Below, piece by piece: positions 41,825 to 50,634 of a stretch of DNA of 64,000 nucleotides. The translations under genes and the position numbers were made by a program. The notes beneath the pieces were generated by a model, which was not told the DNA's origin, did no database searches, and saw only the letters and a list, made by a program, of their open reading frames with translations. Positions within the stretch are counted from its first letter, which is position 1; every line of letters begins with the position of its first letter. This stretch comes from Okamejei kenojei. Taxonomy: Eukaryota. The stretch is taken from assembly GCA_035221665.1 (NCBI GenBank), contig CM069162.1, forward strand, positions 21,576,001-21,640,000, written 5' to 3'.

Positions 41825-42144
41825 TTAGATTAGTTTAGAGATACAGCGCAGAAACAGGCCCTTCGGCCCACCAAGTCCGCACCGACCAGCGATCCCCGCA
41901 CATAAACACTATCCTACACACACTAGGGATAATTTACACATAATTTACCAAGCCAATTAACCTAAAACCTGTACGTTTTTGGAGTGTGGGAGGAAACCGG
42001 AGATCTTGGAGAAAACCCATGCAGGTCATGGGGAGAATGTATAAACTCCTTACAAACAGCACCCGTAGTCGGGATCGAACCCGGGTCTCTGGCGCTACAA
42101 GCGCTGTAAGGTGGGAACTCTACTGCTGTGCCACCCTGCCGCCC
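41825..42144 (-). mobile_element. V-SINE
   Basis: Same SINE on the minus strand. Confidence 0.85.
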
Positions 42145-43422
42145 TATGCATTGGTCACAGAAGATAACTTTGCGATTTTTAAGTCAATCTAGTGAGAGTC
42201 AAAACAGCTCAGTGACTGAACAATAAAGGTTTTCTCAATTAAATTCTCAGAGTCTTTCAATGGCTTAATCAGTGTCACATGTATTGACCCAGAAGGGCTG
42301 TAGAAAATCTGATTTGGCAATAACCCCGGGAGCTGCTTCCCTAACTCCACTTTAAAAGATTAAGATAAATGGGGCCGAACATTCTAGACAAATCCAATCA
42401 AATACTAGACTATCTTCCAAATTACCTGAGTGACAACCGTGCATGTAATAGACGCTTGCTGAAATAGCAGTTGTGGAATCAGTTTATAAAACCTGGATTA
42501 TGCAAAGAACATTTAACCAGCTCATTGCCTATGTAACTATCATAACATTTAAAAGGTATTTGTACGCATACGTGGAAAGGAGATTTGCTGAGGAATTGAC
42601 AGCATGTGCAGTACAAGGAGGACTGTAAGGAGTGGGTTATGTGCCACCCCAACTGTGATGGTTAGATACATATTCTTAAGAAAACGTGTGACAACGTGCA
42701 CTTATATAACGAGATTTTTAATGTCTCAAAGCTCATTCCATCCAATGAGACATTTCTGAGGTGTATTTGCTCTGCACAATCTATGCTATACCATAGATAA
42801 AGAGCACATAGCAAGCTCCTAAAATAGTAACATGATCATCACTAGATAGTTTGAGGTAGAAATTTGTTCTTGGTCACAAGCTGTCAAGCACTGATATGGG
42901 AGCGTTCACACATCCTACCTGCTTCCAAAGTTCATGTCCACTGATTTCAGTGGAATCAAGTTTAGAAATCAGAATACTGGTTTATCATATCATATCAGGT
43001 ACTGGTTGAGGGCAACAAGGACAAATTATGTTTTAAAGGCCTGACTAATAAGTATTCACTGGGGAAGCTGGAGAGAACTGTTATCAGGCAATTGAATCAT
43101 CCTACCACAACCATAGAGCAGTGCTGAACTACTATCAACCTCTTTGATGACCCTCGGGCTATCCTTGAGCAGACTTTGCTGGCATTACCTTGCACTAAAC
43201 GTTATTCCCTTATCATGCATCTGTGCACTGTAAATGGATCGATTGTAATCATGTATTTTACTTCGGAGTCACGTGAGTGACTCTGTGAAGACCCCGCCAG
43301 CACGCATGCGCGACATATCGTCTCGCGCATTAGCCTCGACAAGCTGGGGGGGGGAGAGTGCGCTCTCTCCACCTGCTCCTTCAAAAGGCCGTCAGGTAAG
43401 TTACTAACCTTATTCCAACAGG

Positions 43423-45247
43423 ATGGACAAAGGTAAAAGGAAGGCAACGCTATCCAGGAGCCGTGGGGCATCGACTAGCCAGCGGCCTTTGTCACCGGAG
43501 CTGCAAGCACCACCGGCAGCTTCGGGACGGTCGGGGGCAAGAATGCGGAAGTCGGGCGCTCCCGTTAGACCAGCGCCCGACTCATCACCTGAATGGTTCA
43601 CCGCACCGGAGCTGGAGCCTGCTGACCCAGACTTCGTGCCCCCATCCCCCAGGAAGAGGGGGAGCAAACAGGTACGTGGAAAGGAGCCTCGCTCGTCGCC
43701 AGCGACCTCACCCCGAGTTCCAGCAGACCCACGGGGACCGGACCGGGGACCGGGCCGGGGAACGGCTGCGCTACAGGGGAGCCCAGCAGCCGCACTCTGC
43801 CACGTACAACTGCCAGGGATATCTGCCGTAGGGCAGTCTGGCAGAACTACTGCTGCGTCGAGCAGCCCTGCAGGAGCAGGTGCTGCCGGCACAACACCTC
43901 GTCAGGCTGCGGTCAAGGGCGTTGTTGGCAGCAGTAGACGGTCGGTCAACTTGGCTCTGGCAGCTGCCGACCATGCGCCTCCATGCAGAACATTGGGCGA
44001 CAGTGGAGGTAAGTCTGCACGGACTACGGGGAGCCAGGTTCCGGGGGCCGACGTCGATCCAACTCACCTGCCTTCGTACCAGACAGGTGGGCCGCCACAG
44101 TCTGCGAGGAGACAGACTAGCGGAGAGTCCGTGCGGGAGTCGTATGAGCCTACAGGGGCGGTAGGCCACGACGACCTGCCATCGGACCCTAGTCAGCACC
44201 TTACGGAGGTGTGGTCCGATGGTGGAAGCCCCAGTGAATTCGCAGGGCCTGGGGAAGTCGGCTTGTCCACTGCAAATAGCAGGGACGGTCGCATTGAGCG
44301 GTTGGAGCTCTTAGTGGAGCAACTCCTCCAGCGGGACAGGGACCGGGATGAACGGGACTCGCAGGCCTCTACAAGCCACGCCAGGAGTCCACTCAGCCTC
44401 TCGTCTTCACCAGCCAGGAGTGCCAGCAGTTGCCCGGCCGCTGTTTTCGAAGACGACCCGGGACTGCCGGAGACCGCAGAGCCAGAGCACGATGAGGACA
44501 TGCTGGACGTGGTGGGCAAGTTTGCCACGGCCACACAAACTGGGGAACCCCTGCACCACAAACTGGCGGGCACCATTAATTACCTGATCACTCACCAACT
44601 TCAGGGTCAGGTACTTATTGAGACAATGGAGAAAATCAAACCACCTGAGAACTGCATCAACCTCAGTGTTCCCATGGTCAATGCTCAGATCTGGGGACAT
44701 TTGAGCACGGCCAACAAGATGCAGGATGTCCGTCTCCAGCGTATCCTGAAGCTCCTCTCCACGGGCATAACAGCGTGTGCCAGGACCCTCGATGGGGACA
44801 ATGTGTCCAGCGAGCAGCAGGATGCCCTGGCACTCTTATGTAACGCCCAGTTCGAAATAAACTGCCTGCGCAAGAGCTCCATTAAGCCCACTCTCAACCC
44901 CAAATTTGCGGGGTTGTGCCGTCCATCTACCGCTCCACCACCTCATCAACTGTTTGGAACAGATCTTTCCAAACAAGTGAAGGAACTAGATGAGAAGGCC
45001 AAAACAGCGGGCCTTATGAAACCTCCTCCGACAAAACCCCACCCATATCACCGTCAACAACCACACACTACTTGGAAGCAGCGCCAGCCGGATAGGACGC
45101 CAAGGACCTATCCCCCTCCACTTCCCCAACCACAGCGGCCTTTTTTAAGGGCAAGGCCTACAGCGGCCCGCATGGAAGATGCGGCCGCCATCCCGACAAC
45201 CTCCGCAACGTCCACCCAAAACGCCATACGCCAGGACCCACCGTTAA
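43423..45247 (+). CDS. DIRS gag-like ORF1 (LAP2alpha-like domain), fused in frame to pol in this copy
   Basis: Low-complexity N-terminus, coiled coil RIERLELLVEQLLQR, core PPENCINLSVPMVNAQIW...DVRLQRI...LFGTDL; inferred native stop TAA 45245-45247 in the +1 frame. Confidence 0.8.
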
Positions 45248-47137
45248 CCATGGAGGTAAGGGGATCTGGTTCCTCTCAGACAGTAGCATCCCTTCCTGCA
45301 CAAATTGGGGGACGATTGCGGGCCTTTCGGGGAGTTTGGGACACTATCACCACTGATGTATTTATTTTACAAAGTGTTCAAGGTTATGTTATAGAATTCA
45401 TTGATGGTCAATTTCCCCCTACCCAGCATTCGCCTCATCGAAAATTTACACTCTCTCAAAATGAGGTTGAGGCAGGACATGCCAAAATCTTACGGCTCGC
45501 AGCAAAAGGGGTGATTGGGAAATCAACGCATGAACCCCTTGAGTTTGTGTCCAACATCTTCACCAAAACTAAAAAAGATGGGGGGTGTCGAATTATTATA
45601 GACCTAACTGAGCTGAACACTTTTGTACAATATGCCCACTTTAAAATGGATACCTTTGAAACAGCCCATGGCTTTTACCCGGGGTACTTTATGGCCTGCA
45701 TCGATTTAAAAGATGCATACTATACAGTGCCCATCACTGAATCGCACAGAAAGTTTCTGAAATTTGTCTGGAAGGAACAGTTGTGGGAATACAAAGCATT
45801 GCCCAATGGTCTCACCACAGCCCCCAGACTATTTACCAAATTAGTGAAACCTATATTTGCCCTCCTCCGACAACAAAATTACATTGTCATGGCATATTTA
45901 GATGATATCCTTATTGTGGGTCAGACCCTCCAATTGGCTATACGGGCAGTTACAGCGACTAAATCTTTATTCGAGAAGCTAGGATTGGTAATCCATCCAG
46001 ACAAATCTAAACTGCACCCCTCTCCAATTATGGATTATCTGGGTTTCACCCTTGACACAACCTTAATGATGATCACTATCCCAACCAACAAAGCTATCAC
46101 TATAAAAGAAGCGTGCCACAGCCTTGCTTGCGCCAGGGTACGGACCATCCGGCAAACGGCAAAAGTAATTGGGAAGCTGGTAGCTACATTCTCAGCTGTG
46201 CAATTCAGCCCATTACATTATCAAAATTTACAAAGAACAAAGATCGCAGCATTAAAAGCAAATGCTGGGCACTTTGATCGACCAATCCGATTACCACAAG
46301 AGGCTAGAGCTGAGCTACAATGGTGGATTGACAATATTAGCGAGCGTCACAGACCCATCATAGTAAGCAACCAGACACCCGCACAAGGCTGGGGTGCAAC
46401 TGACACCATGTCCAGTTGTGGTGGCAGATGGGACTCCCATGAGTCTACCCTCCTTCAGTCACAAGGGATAAATTATATTGAGATGTTAGGAGCTTTCCAT
46501 GGACTGCGGGCTTACTGTACCAACTCACGGGACTTACATGTCCGCCTCCAAATAGATAACACAGCGGTGGTGGCTTATATCAATCATATGGGTGGTCTCA
46601 GGTCGCTATCTTGTGATGAATTGGCAAACACAATTTGGCACTGGTGCATCGAGAGAAATATTTGGGTTACAGCGAACTATTTGCCAGGGAAGCTTAATAC
46701 AGTGGCGGACACCAGGTCATGAGTATTCAATGACAACATCGAGTGGATGTTGAACCCCCAAATTTTTGCTGACATTATATCTCACTATGGGACACCAGAC
46801 ATTGACCTCTTTGCGTCCAGGTCGTACGTGTCTTGGGAACCAGACTCTGGGGAATAGCAATGGATGCGTTTTCTATCCATTGGGGGAAATGGTTTTGCTA
46901 CGCATTTCCCCCATTTTGCCTCATCAGTCGGGTATTGCAGAAAATTAAACTGGACTCCGCAACTGGGATATTGATCATTCCCGACTGGCCTACACAGCCA
47001 TGGTACCGATGGTCCTTAAAATTTTGAAACAGCCATGGCTTCCGATTGGGAAACACCCCAAATTAATTACTCACCCCATTACGGGGGACAGTCACCCGTG
47101 CCATGGTCACCTAAACTTGTTGGCCTGCAGGTTCTAA
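45172..47137 (+). pseudogene. DIRS pol: reverse transcriptase, RNase H and DNA N6-adenine methyltransferase-like domain (disrupted)
   Basis: RT motifs IDLKDAY, LPNGL, YLDD; RNase H INYIEML..., IDNT, NTVAD with the TDAS motif deleted; TGA at 46720, then DIDLFAS, YAFPPF and PDWPTQPW with frameshifts; stop 47135-47137. Confidence 0.9.
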
Positions 47138-48092
47138 AAAGACCACTCATCAAGGTGGGCATCTCACCACAAGCCTTGGAACTCATCTCAGCATCATGCC
47201 GAGTATCAACCCGGAGGCAGCACCTCACACAATCAGGAAGTGGGAGGCATTCTGCTCTCGTACCAACACGACTGCCAACATGGCAACAATCCCTGATGTC
47301 CTGGAATTCCTAGCTGGCCTTCATTTCGATGCTGGCCTTAGCTACAGTGCCATCAACAGCGCCAGGAGTGCACTATCCTCATACCTGGACATAGGTATAG
47401 GCTCCAACCACCTGGTGTCTAAATTCATGAGGGGAGTGTTTAACACCAACCCTCCACGGCCCAGATACAACTTCACCTGGGATGTAGGGATCGTTCTGAC
47501 CCTACTGAGGAGCTGGTCTCCAATGACCGAGTTACCACTCAAACAGCTCACCCTCAAAGTGGTGATGCTGATGGCACTGACTACAGCTCCATGAGTCCAG
47601 GCATTACAGAAGCTGCGGCTGGATAGCATGGTCTCCACCCCTACACAGGTGACTTTCTTTGTCCAGGACTTATTGAAGCAGCACAGGCCAAGGGCTCATG
47701 GACTGCACTTGGAGTTTCGGGCGTACCCTACTGCTGCCACCCTCTGCATAGTTACCCATCTCCACCACTACATCCGAATTACATGAACCATCAGGAAGAA
47801 GGAGCAGGGGCTCCTTATCAGCCACAAACCTCCGCATCACCGGGTGACTGTGCAGACTATCGCCAGGTGGCTCAGGGCGGTGTTGGGTGCAGCAGGAGTC
47901 GCTACTAACATTTTAAAATCTCATTCTACTAGGGCTGCATCCACATCAGCGGCGAGGGCCATGGAGGTGCCCATGGACCACATCCTCGCCACCGCGGGCT
48001 GGGCCAGTGAAGCAACCTTCCAAAGGTTCTACAATAAACCACTGGTCGCCCCCGCAACATTCGCAGAAGCTGTGCTGGGAGCCACTCAGTGA
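47131..48092 (+). pseudogene. DIRS tyrosine recombinase (disrupted)
   Basis: GISPQALELISAS.R.ST..., GLSYSAINSARSALS, HSTR, AGW, RFY; frameshift near 47230 and TGA at 47592 and 47784. Confidence 0.9.
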
Positions 48093-48262
48093 ATGTTTGT
48101 CCCCCAGTTAGGGGTTCTCTGTTCATTATTATTTGTTTAATAAATATGCATTATTTTTCAGCCAGTTTTGACTGAACTGCATTAACAGTCTTCCTCCATC
48201 AGACTGGCGGCAGTGTGATAGCATGGACATTGTCCAGGGCGTGAAATTACAGAGCTTTGAAA

Positions 48263-48376
48263 TCTTCACAAAGTCACTCACGTGACTCCGAAGTAAAATA
48301 GTAAGATTAAACTAGAACCTACCAAGTTCGAAGGTTGATCTTTATTTTATGAGGAGTTGCGGTGAGGGATTTCGTG
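48263..48376 (+). repeat. DIRS internal complementary region (ICR)
   Basis: 48263-48300 is the reverse complement of 43254-43291 (1 mismatch); 48299-48376 is the reverse complement of 48515-48592 (3 mismatches). Confidence 0.95.
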
Positions 48377-50341
48377 CCCTCCGCTCCCACCCTCTATCAT
48401 AAGGTCAACTGGGAAGTTCTACGTTCTTCATCTTACTATTTTCAGTCATGGTGCGTTCTGTGATTCCACACCGCTGCTTTGAAGGATGCCGCGCATGCGT
48501 GCTGGCGGGGTCTTCACGAAATCCCTCACCGCAACTCCTCATAAAATAAAGATCAACCTTCGAACTTGGTAAGTTCTCGTTTAATCTTGCTATTATCTTC
48601 CTGTTGTCTGGTTAGTACGCAACAAATGCTTTCCACTGAACCTCGGTAAACGTGACAATAAACTCAACTGAACTGAGAATTGGGTATTGGATTAAGGTAC
48701 CATTGTGGTAGCCAAATGGCTGCACATCTGACAGCACAGCATTCACCCAATAAAGTATTCGCTGGATTACAAACTGACAGAAGCATCTCCTGCAATTGTG
48801 CCATTTGAAAGTGTCTCTTTACCCCATCAGCAAAGTCCTAACTGGCACCTCTGAGGGTCTGAATTTGCCTGGCAATGAGCCGAGCAATGGAGTTTGTTGC
48901 AATATTAAAACAATCCATTGCTTTTACCTGTGACCCTGTGGCCCACTTTCACCTCTTGAGTCAGACCTACTCCTGTAACGTGAGCAGGTATTTCAGTAAG
49001 TGCTGATTATCCAAAGATTTTTAGCCACATTGTTAAAGCACCAGCTTTAACATTAGGACACAAGGGAGGGAACAGGACGTGGCCATCTGATGCTTCTAGC
49101 CAGTTCCATTATTCATCTCGTTCATGGATAATCTTCGACCTCAGTGTCACTTTCCTGCACTATTCTCATATCCCCAAATTCCCTTAATACCCAGGAATCG
49201 ATCAGTCTGAGCTATGAATGAATGAATGAATGAATTAATGTATCCTGTGAGTTTCCAACAGCCTTTGAGCAGAGAATTCCAAAGTTTCACCACCTTCTGG
49301 GTGAAGGAATTTCTGCCCATCTCAAAGTCTTAAGTGGCTAATGCTTTCTTCTCACACGGTGTCCGGGTTTCCTCAGTCAGTTGAAACAAAAGATTATATA
49401 GAACCTCTCATTACAAAGCCCAAACTCAAATGCTAACAGTAATACTGCTGACATTCTCGGAGATGGAGCAACATTTGAACTGCAGACAAGTTTGGATTAT
49501 CAATAGCAATCCTTGTCAATATATTTGTGTACCAACTATTATTTTTAAATATTAATTGTTTGCAATATTTCGAGTAGCTGGATTATTTAAAACTATGTAC
49601 AATGTAATAATCATTTATTTATTACATTGGTGAACATCCTGATCTATTTCTTGAGGAGTCACCAGGTTCATTTATTCATGTGTATATATATTTATATAAT
49701 TATATAATAGTATATGGACACACTGATCTGTTCTATAGTCATGCCTACTATGTACTGTTGTGCTGAAGCAAAGCAAGAATTTCATTGTCCTACCAGGGAC
49801 ACATGACAATAAACTCCCTTGAATCTTGAATCTTGAATCTTCATGACTTTAGGTTTATGGTTGTTTATGGACTACAAATACTCTGATTGGAGAACCCCCA
49901 CTATTTCATAAGTTGCCATTCCCTTCACACTCCTGAAGGTTACGATGGGATATCTGGTTTACAAAGTGTTTACCAGAACCTTAACGTACAGAAATAAAGT
50001 ACCTTTACACTTCAGAGATCTCAATCATTATAGCATCTAACATGGGAACTCAAAACTAAAAGATGATCAAGAGACTGCTGAAGCTACAAATCTGAAAACC
50101 CTGGAAAGACTCAGCAGATCCGGCAGCATCTGTAGAAATAGAAACAGGTTTAATGCTTCAGATCCAGATCTCTTAGCAGAACTAGGAAAGCGAGGATACA
50201 AGTTAATTTTTAGTGGCAGAGTGAATTAGAGGGAGGGGATGGGATGTAACGGGAGGCAAAGGAAACAAACACAATGTACACAGATAAAGAAGAATGATCT
50301 GAACCCAACTGCAATACCTAGGACTACATTAACTGATCTAA

Positions 50342-50634
50342 TTTAGTTTAGTTTAGAGATACAGTGCAGAAACAGGCTCTTCTCACCGAGTCAGCGCCGA
50401 CCAGCGAACCCTGCATGTTAATACTATCCTACACACACTGGGAACAATTTACACAAGCCAATTAACCAGCAAACCTGTATGTCTTTGGAGTGTGGGAAGA
50501 AATCGGAGATCTTGGAGAAAATCCATGCAGAAAACCCGTGCAGACAGCGCCAGTAGTTGGGATTGAACCCTGGGTCTGTGGCGCGACAAGCGCTGTAAAG
50601 CAGCAACTCTGCTGCTGCGCCACCATGCCGCCCT
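50342..50634 (-). mobile_element. V-SINE
   Basis: Same SINE on the minus strand. Confidence 0.8.

Follow-up and report, generated by a model that had tools for sequence, protein, structure and literature searches.

The DIRS1-like retrotransposon found in the window (the whole 64,000-nucleotide stretch of Okamejei kenojei contig CM069162.1 analysed here) belongs to a family that appears to make its tyrosine recombinase (YR) from an RNA out of which pol has been spliced, the product probably being a Gag-transframe-YR fusion reached through a -1 slip at position 45141, a combined prediction that is moderately favoured on the sequences compared. The two splice sites around pol, their phase and conservation, a slippery heptamer near the end of gag and two gene models with a homologous junction were observed. 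The positions of all features are given in Table 1, where related loci and homologous proteins carry L and P numbers, respectively.

Table 1. Predicted and observed features of the DIRS1-like element, in positions of the window.
Feature	Position	Strand	Basis or remark
Whole DIRS1-like element	43255..48594	+	Inverted repeats I1, I3 and I4; end sequences ATT...ATT
Left terminus / left ITR	43254..43316	+	Complementary to 48263-48300 (97%) and 48486-48529 (89%)
Leader: strongest donor of the element (GT 43396), TACTAAC, pyrimidine tract, CAG, gag ATG	43393..43425	+	
gag-like ORF1	43423..45247	+	Similarity to gag of relatives
Predicted -1 slippery heptamer TTTTTTA, gag frame	45141..45147	+	Same phase and place in 17/18 intact relatives
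Predicted transframe peptide, 38 codons	45141..45255	+	Open pol frame; contains ATG 45172 and ATG 45250
Phase-0 donor GAG/GTAAGG	45256..45261	+	19 codons before GGRL; 11 nt past the start of the gag-tail stop
Predicted optional intron, comprising pol (RT, RNase H, MT)	45256..47130	+	P0121 maps to 45256-47134; RVT_1
In-frame ATG (GCCATGG) upstream of YR, rival start	47035..47037	+	Formed by pol P-W codons
Phase-0 acceptor TGCAG/G	47115..47130	+	Inside pol C-R codons; 22 codons before the first conserved YR Trp
Tyrosine recombinase ORF, broken	47131..48092	+	Frameshift near 47230; stops 47592 and 47784
Internal complementary region (ICR)	48263..48376	+	I1 and I4; halves overlap at 48297-48300
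Right ITR and right terminus	48486..48594	+	I1 and I3

With its inverted termini, ICR, ATT ends, RT domain and tyrosine recombinase, the element is a decayed DIRS1-like retrotransposon. The ITRs were accompanied by an ICR matching both element ends (I1, I3 and I4), and the element has ATT at each end with AAT where the ICR halves overlap, in agreement with the DIRS1-like rule of NTT trinucleotide ends complementary to the ICR junction that is stated in passages of PMC3266345. Moreover, no direct repeat joining the element ends, in the manner of the split direct repeats of Ngaro/PAT, was present among the repeats found. An RVT_1 match (Pfam, E 1.3e-19) began near 45571 in pol, the pol ORF matched P0121 over its full length across frameshifts, and the pol homologs carried PF05869 or PF12237; separate Pfam matches to RNase H and MT were not obtained in the pol of this copy. 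The ORF after pol encodes a tyrosine recombinase, broken in this copy, with the HSTR motif and no DDE integrase. Its Phage_integrase match (Pfam, E 5e-4) was below the cutoff, its identity to P0001, a PF00589 carrier, was 69%, its nearest named homolog was a skate protein, and no solved structure matching the YR profile was found. Apart from the YR lesions of Table 1, a pol stop (46720) and frameshifts in the MT region were detected, and the window copy itself is unable to make intact Pol or YR. No second copy of the element was present within the 64-kb window.

The sequence-only reading had placed a donor (GTAAGG at 45256) behind ATG 45250 and GAG, and an acceptor AG at 47129-47130, with an intron of 1875 nt, and these coordinates proved to be right, as did the phase, since donor and acceptor are both in phase 0 of the same frame. 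It had also correctly noted that no ATG is present at the start of the YR homology (47122-47131) and that ATG 47035 is in frame with YR. The closest relatives do not have an ATG at the position of 47035. However, ATG 45250 does not lie two codons into RT, as had been written, but 21 codons before the Arg of GGRL and upstream of RVT_1; and the intron, which was said to remove RT, RNase H and almost all of MT, does remove them, though its actual extent is all of pol but the last two codons, pol ending in LLACRF with its stop at 47135-47137. Ranked over the whole element by an approximate splice matrix, the donor was third among 238 GT and the acceptor, with a weak pyrimidine tract, ninth among 334 AG, a rank that makes the latter only moderate. 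Taken alone, the splice sites of the window are suggestive, not decisive. In four runs that are probably DNA, contigs lay along the whole element (1615-2833 per run); no 45255-47131 joint was present among the 15 listed of 45 joints and no base change at donor or acceptor among the 40 listed of 709 differences, neither result being evidence either way.

Conservation was assessed across relatives, comprising 81 loci, with the YR Trp anchored in 65 of them and the RT start in 33 rows (window included). A total of 23 full-length rows, again including the window, formed the test set, after 10 had been dropped (three L009-family copies, L005 because of its deletion, four truncated at contig ends and two lacking the YR anchor). 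The donor was taken as the highest-scoring GT within 84 nt upstream of the GxRL motif, required to be in phase 0 with a score of at least 3 and compared with windows inside pol, and the acceptor as the highest-scoring AG at 20-50 codons upstream of the YR Trp, again in phase 0. A phase-0 donor just before RT was found in 17 of the 23 elements vs. 11 of 437 pol-internal controls; at the YR start, the top acceptor was in phase 0 in 17 of the 23 vs. 106 of 411 controls; and both appeared together in 15. The nominal P-values of 6e-23 (donor) and 2e-6 (acceptor) are overstated, because both the scoring windows and the threshold were chosen once the data had been seen, and because the elements share ancestry, with one metagenome supplying a large part of them. 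The donor-bearing rows were spread over the tree, with RT identities of 27-74% (median about 40%), and a donor was absent in five of the 23 elements. In particular, L002, the closest DNA relative, presents GAG/GTAGGT 19 codons before RT, as in the window, and was scored as a donor miss because an overlapping phase-1 donor outscores the phase-0 site. The expectation that donor, acceptor and phase would be conserved was thus borne out, in a comparison made across divergent relatives. Furthermore, Val-Ser pairs were written with AGY in 13 of 19 cases in the leader before RT vs. 8 of 49 inside RT (P-value of 7e-5), in elements not selected on splice score, and among pol homologs with at least 17 residues before GGRL the pattern [QEK]V[SGRC] was found in 9 of 25, vs. 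38 of 2055 control windows.

When long YR proteins were searched for, 107 matches were obtained, and 16 proteins were examined for the junction. Two RefSeq models of the sea urchin Diadema antillarum (XP_071483612.1 and XP_071502116.1) consist of gag and a leader (...EKVTALPKE) joined to VLKLPF of YR, with no pol, and their junction lies at YR codon -22, homologous to the one predicted in the window. This leader could be aligned to that of P0128 pol (EKVATALPQE followed by VGS) up to the QE-VGS donor motif, with none of 200 shuffles as good, and the other nine of the 10 leaders tested gave no significant alignment to it. The two models are near-copies of one family, in which gag and leader are bridged by different introns that are probably artificial. 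Gnomon is able to predict introns ab initio, and the Diadema junction suggests, as gene-model support that may itself be a Gnomon-type ab initio prediction, a homologous splice. The earlier proposal that pol is spliced out is hence backed both by the retention of donor, acceptor and phase in divergent families and by the homologous junction of the two RefSeq models, and the splice at 45256/47130 is likely to be real, judging from this comparison and these gene models. Other models enter YR at -22 (P0268) or -37 (P0296, P0323 and P0328), all from within pol, and they show only that predictors pick these acceptors. A transframe junction could not be established for P0326, a moth model with gag and YR, no pol and YR entry at -37, and P0272 and P0277 (gag and YR) were rejected as having the same junction, as YR was entered elsewhere. 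No further leader-YR junction was present among the 72 of 145 proteins with enough N-terminus.

Among the 81 loci, no spliced contig was found. L005, L017 and L063 were rejected as spliced copies because each has lost an internal part of pol (the donor being retained in L005), and L051 was likewise rejected as a deletion. In L005 (1339-1600), the deletion fuses about 40 RT codons in frame to YR and leaves gag, slip site and donor intact, and parts of pol are missing in L017 and L063.

The frame into which the donor opens was then defined by the gag/pol overlap. Of the relatives, 18 have an intact gag ORF that runs into the pol frame; in a tally by hand, a slippery heptamer in -1 phase (TTTTTTA, TTTAAAC or AAAAAAC) appeared in 17 of these 18 overlaps vs. 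34 of 204 control windows. The TTTTTTA of the window lies 16 codons after the pol-frame stop at 45093. A downstream fold with z of -2 or lower was found in 11 of the 17 relatives with a heptamer, by lenient mononucleotide shuffles, and no significant stem was detected downstream of the heptamer in the window (z of -0.07). The slip site was separated from the donor by 30-62 codons in 16 relatives (38 in the window), and the gag stop fell 5-44 nt before the donor in 16 of 16 tabulated relatives (11 nt in the window). Since the gag stop precedes it, the donor cannot join gag directly to YR and would join the frameshifted frame, which leads to a model with Gag, Gag-Pol and Gag-YR. In the window copy, gag and pol form a single 1104-codon frame, and the gag tail (after about 45147, with TAA at 45245-45247), which resembles the PFLGKG..W tail of L009 gag, is in a different frame from the gag body. 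Because the gag-like tail sits in another frame after the 45141-45148 run, the fusion is apparently a defect of the window copy. The lesion falls on the slippery run (45141-45150), where it fixes gag and pol in one frame and mimics the predicted frameshift product.

With regard to the start of translation, no Met was found between the upstream pol-frame stop and RT in 15 of the 18 intact junctions, including that of L002. The short exon supplying its own ATG (45172 or 45250), as proposed by the sequence-only reading, is not general, as 15 of 18 relatives lack this Met and 17 of 18 have the slippery heptamer. Because relatives lack a Met and the heptamer is correctly phased, the shared 5' part is more likely to be Gag plus the transframe peptide, and a start at the gag ATG followed by a frameshift, as in the moderately favoured overall prediction, is considered more likely than a start in the short exon. 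The latter is the best surviving alternative, if an unlikely one, and keeps the same splice, with YR and Pol starting at ATG 45250 or 45172 either by reinitiation after the gag stop (via TAA CC ATG) or by a second splice in which the leader donor 43396 removes gag. It draws on the context of ATG 45250 (ACCATGG), 2 nt after the gag-tail stop, on P0123 (56% identity), which begins MEVGGSGS, and P0131, which begins MEEVS, on the Met before the donor in L009 and L076, on the rank of donor 43396 (best of the 238 GT in the element by the approximate matrix) and on TTTTTTAG in relatives, which could double as acceptor. However, besides the missing Met in most relatives, L002 too, many of them use TTTAAAC or AAAAAAC, both without AG, the leader donor was not kept in 14 metagenome relatives and was rejected as a conserved feature, and P0121, the closest pol (60%), is called from the Val after the donor position. 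An M-E start is possible in the lineage of the window, given the context of ATG 45250 and the MEVGG of P0123.

Regarding the leader itself, the distance between its donor and acceptor is 26 nt, too short for an intron, and TACTAAC is a perfect branch-point word. An acceptor just before gag would fit the inference, in passages of PMC4495291, that a DIRS1 gag co-opted as LAP2alpha carried an acceptor. An upstream ORF of 30 codons (43306-43395, beginning with ATG 43306) runs in phase 0 up to donor 43396 and could be joined in frame to the YR acceptor, and a second strong donor, GAG/GTAAGT in phase 1, was found inside gag at 44009.

The position of the acceptor was clade-specific, being 22 codons above the Trp in the window, L001, L002, L008 and L030, 36-38 codons in another clade and 48 in a third. 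In all four of L001, L002, L008 and L030, a stop codon lies 6-15 codons before the acceptor and closes the YR frame. Pol has C-R at the -22 position in six rows, five of which use TGC AGR; L060 has TGT CGC there and an acceptor at -37 instead. In the P0123/P0246 family, two overlapping protein frames force CAG at the acceptor despite a change from Cys to Ser in pol. Of 55 loci, 33 have their best acceptor in phase 0, and in 27 the YR frame is closed and has no ATG upstream. Moreover, a closed YR frame with no ATG at least 20 codons above the Trp was found in 12 of 18 donor-bearing vs. none of five donor-less elements (P-value of 0.014), three of the latter five forming one clade. These data bear on the alternative that there is no splice, which we consider improbable, and in which YR would be made from its own ATG (47035) on an internal or processed RNA, or by a pol-to-YR frameshift, the sites being by-products of coding. 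In its favour, this ATG is in frame in the context GCCATGG, many homologous YR ORFs have a Met 24-25, 67-72 or 89 codons above the Trp, an in-frame ATG lies three codons above the acceptor in L001, L008 and L030 and 11 codons above it in the P0246 family, and a frameshift proposal for Ngaro is quoted in a passage of PMC13003380. However, the ATG position varies by family (-24/-25, -33, -54 or none) whereas the acceptor is fixed within clades, the 27 loci with a closed YR frame offer no such ATG, and the conservation of the phase-0 donor, the AGY bias and the Diadema models would be left unexplained. Some families probably do use their own YR ATG, because donor-less elements never lack one (0/5), and in families without a donor this route is probably real. 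In the donor-less L043, L049, L055 and L058, the YR frame stays open for 138-1118 codons above the Trp, as in classical DIRS-1, and splicing and long YR overlap may be alternative designs.

That the RNA is spliced in vivo, that ribosomes shift frame and that a fusion protein results are inferences from the sites and their conservation. Under the preferred Gag-transframe-YR reading, translation would begin at the gag ATG and slip by -1 at 45141 into the pol frame, producing a short transframe peptide followed by pol on unspliced RNA or by YR on spliced RNA, so that the former RNA would give Gag and Gag-Pol and the latter Gag and Gag-YR. This would explain an enzyme without its own start codon, since YR would be joined to a frame started in gag. 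Nonsense-mediated decay follows a 50-55 nt rule, and with a donor no more than 44 nt past the gag stop the spliced RNA would be expected to escape it. Least probable is a real splice that is mainly regulatory or silencing (less full-length RNA, or a gag-only message) with YR incidental. In its favour, the spliced RNA would still mostly give Gag and the donor lies directly behind the gag stop, but neither phase 0 at both ends nor an acceptor at the YR start would be required. We lean slightly towards the broader view that a large share of animal DIRS1-like elements combine a -1 frameshift with an optional pol intron, so that the same Gag-transframe stem would carry RT or YR into the particle and the donor near the gag stop would avoid nonsense-mediated decay.

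Retroviruses present a gag/pol -1 frameshift with a TTTTTTA-type slip site and a transframe peptide, and make env from a spliced RNA; slip site, transframe peptide and a spliced RNA for the downstream ORF are the features shared with the element. In contrast, the integrating enzyme would here come from the spliced RNA, dependent on the frameshift and fused to Gag, and there is no env or protease. Foamy viruses (with a spliced pol), hepadnaviruses and copia-type elements use spliced RNAs to balance structural against enzymatic proteins. In copia, pol is cut out and Gag alone is made, whereas in the window element pol would be swapped for the recombinase.

The element is alike to the DIRS1-like elements in passages of PMC3266345 and PMC9210276 in its gag, RT/RH/MT and YR ORFs, its ITRs with ICR and its ATT ends. 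A short ORF overlap, given by Piednoel et al., in the part covered, for about half of 28 DIRS1-like elements, was likewise found here. Ngaro-like elements are alike in that YR overlaps the pol end in the -1 frame (passages of PMC13003380), and frameshifting was proposed for their YR by Poulter and Butler 2015, as quoted there. However, the Ngaro proposal goes from pol to YR, whereas here YR would join gag by splicing with pol skipped, and the split direct repeats of Ngaro differ from the ITR/ICR ends of the window element. No description of a pol-spanning intron or of a gag/pol slippery site in DIRS1 elements was found in the literature passages covered (also from PMC7192593, 10.64898/2026.05.21.726589, PMC9341512, PMC4157794, PMC9940879, PMC5633606 and PMC6681497), and the passages of PMC3266345 and PMC9210276 held no statement on the translation mode of YR or Pol. 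A pol-skipping splice for YR in DIRS1 elements is new as far as found in these passages, with a prior mention in earlier reviews possible. The translation of the second and third DIRS ORFs is not settled in the literature passages covered, and the model names exact sites for both steps. If true, a Gag-YR fusion would load the recombinase into the particle of RT, like retroviral integrase via Gag-Pol, the annotation of DIRS ORFs and the judging of active copies would change, and odd gag and YR gene models in animal annotations would be explained.

Finally, no relatives were found among viral contigs, and one was found among genome contigs. A DIRS-like pol/YR stretch (L081, 4830-6915) lies in a 705 kb contig titled as a Nitrospirales MAG, where it is likely to represent contamination or mis-binning. 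In the window, a short interspersed repeat was present in two copies (41825-42145 and 50343-50634; 83-93% alike) flanking the element at some distance.
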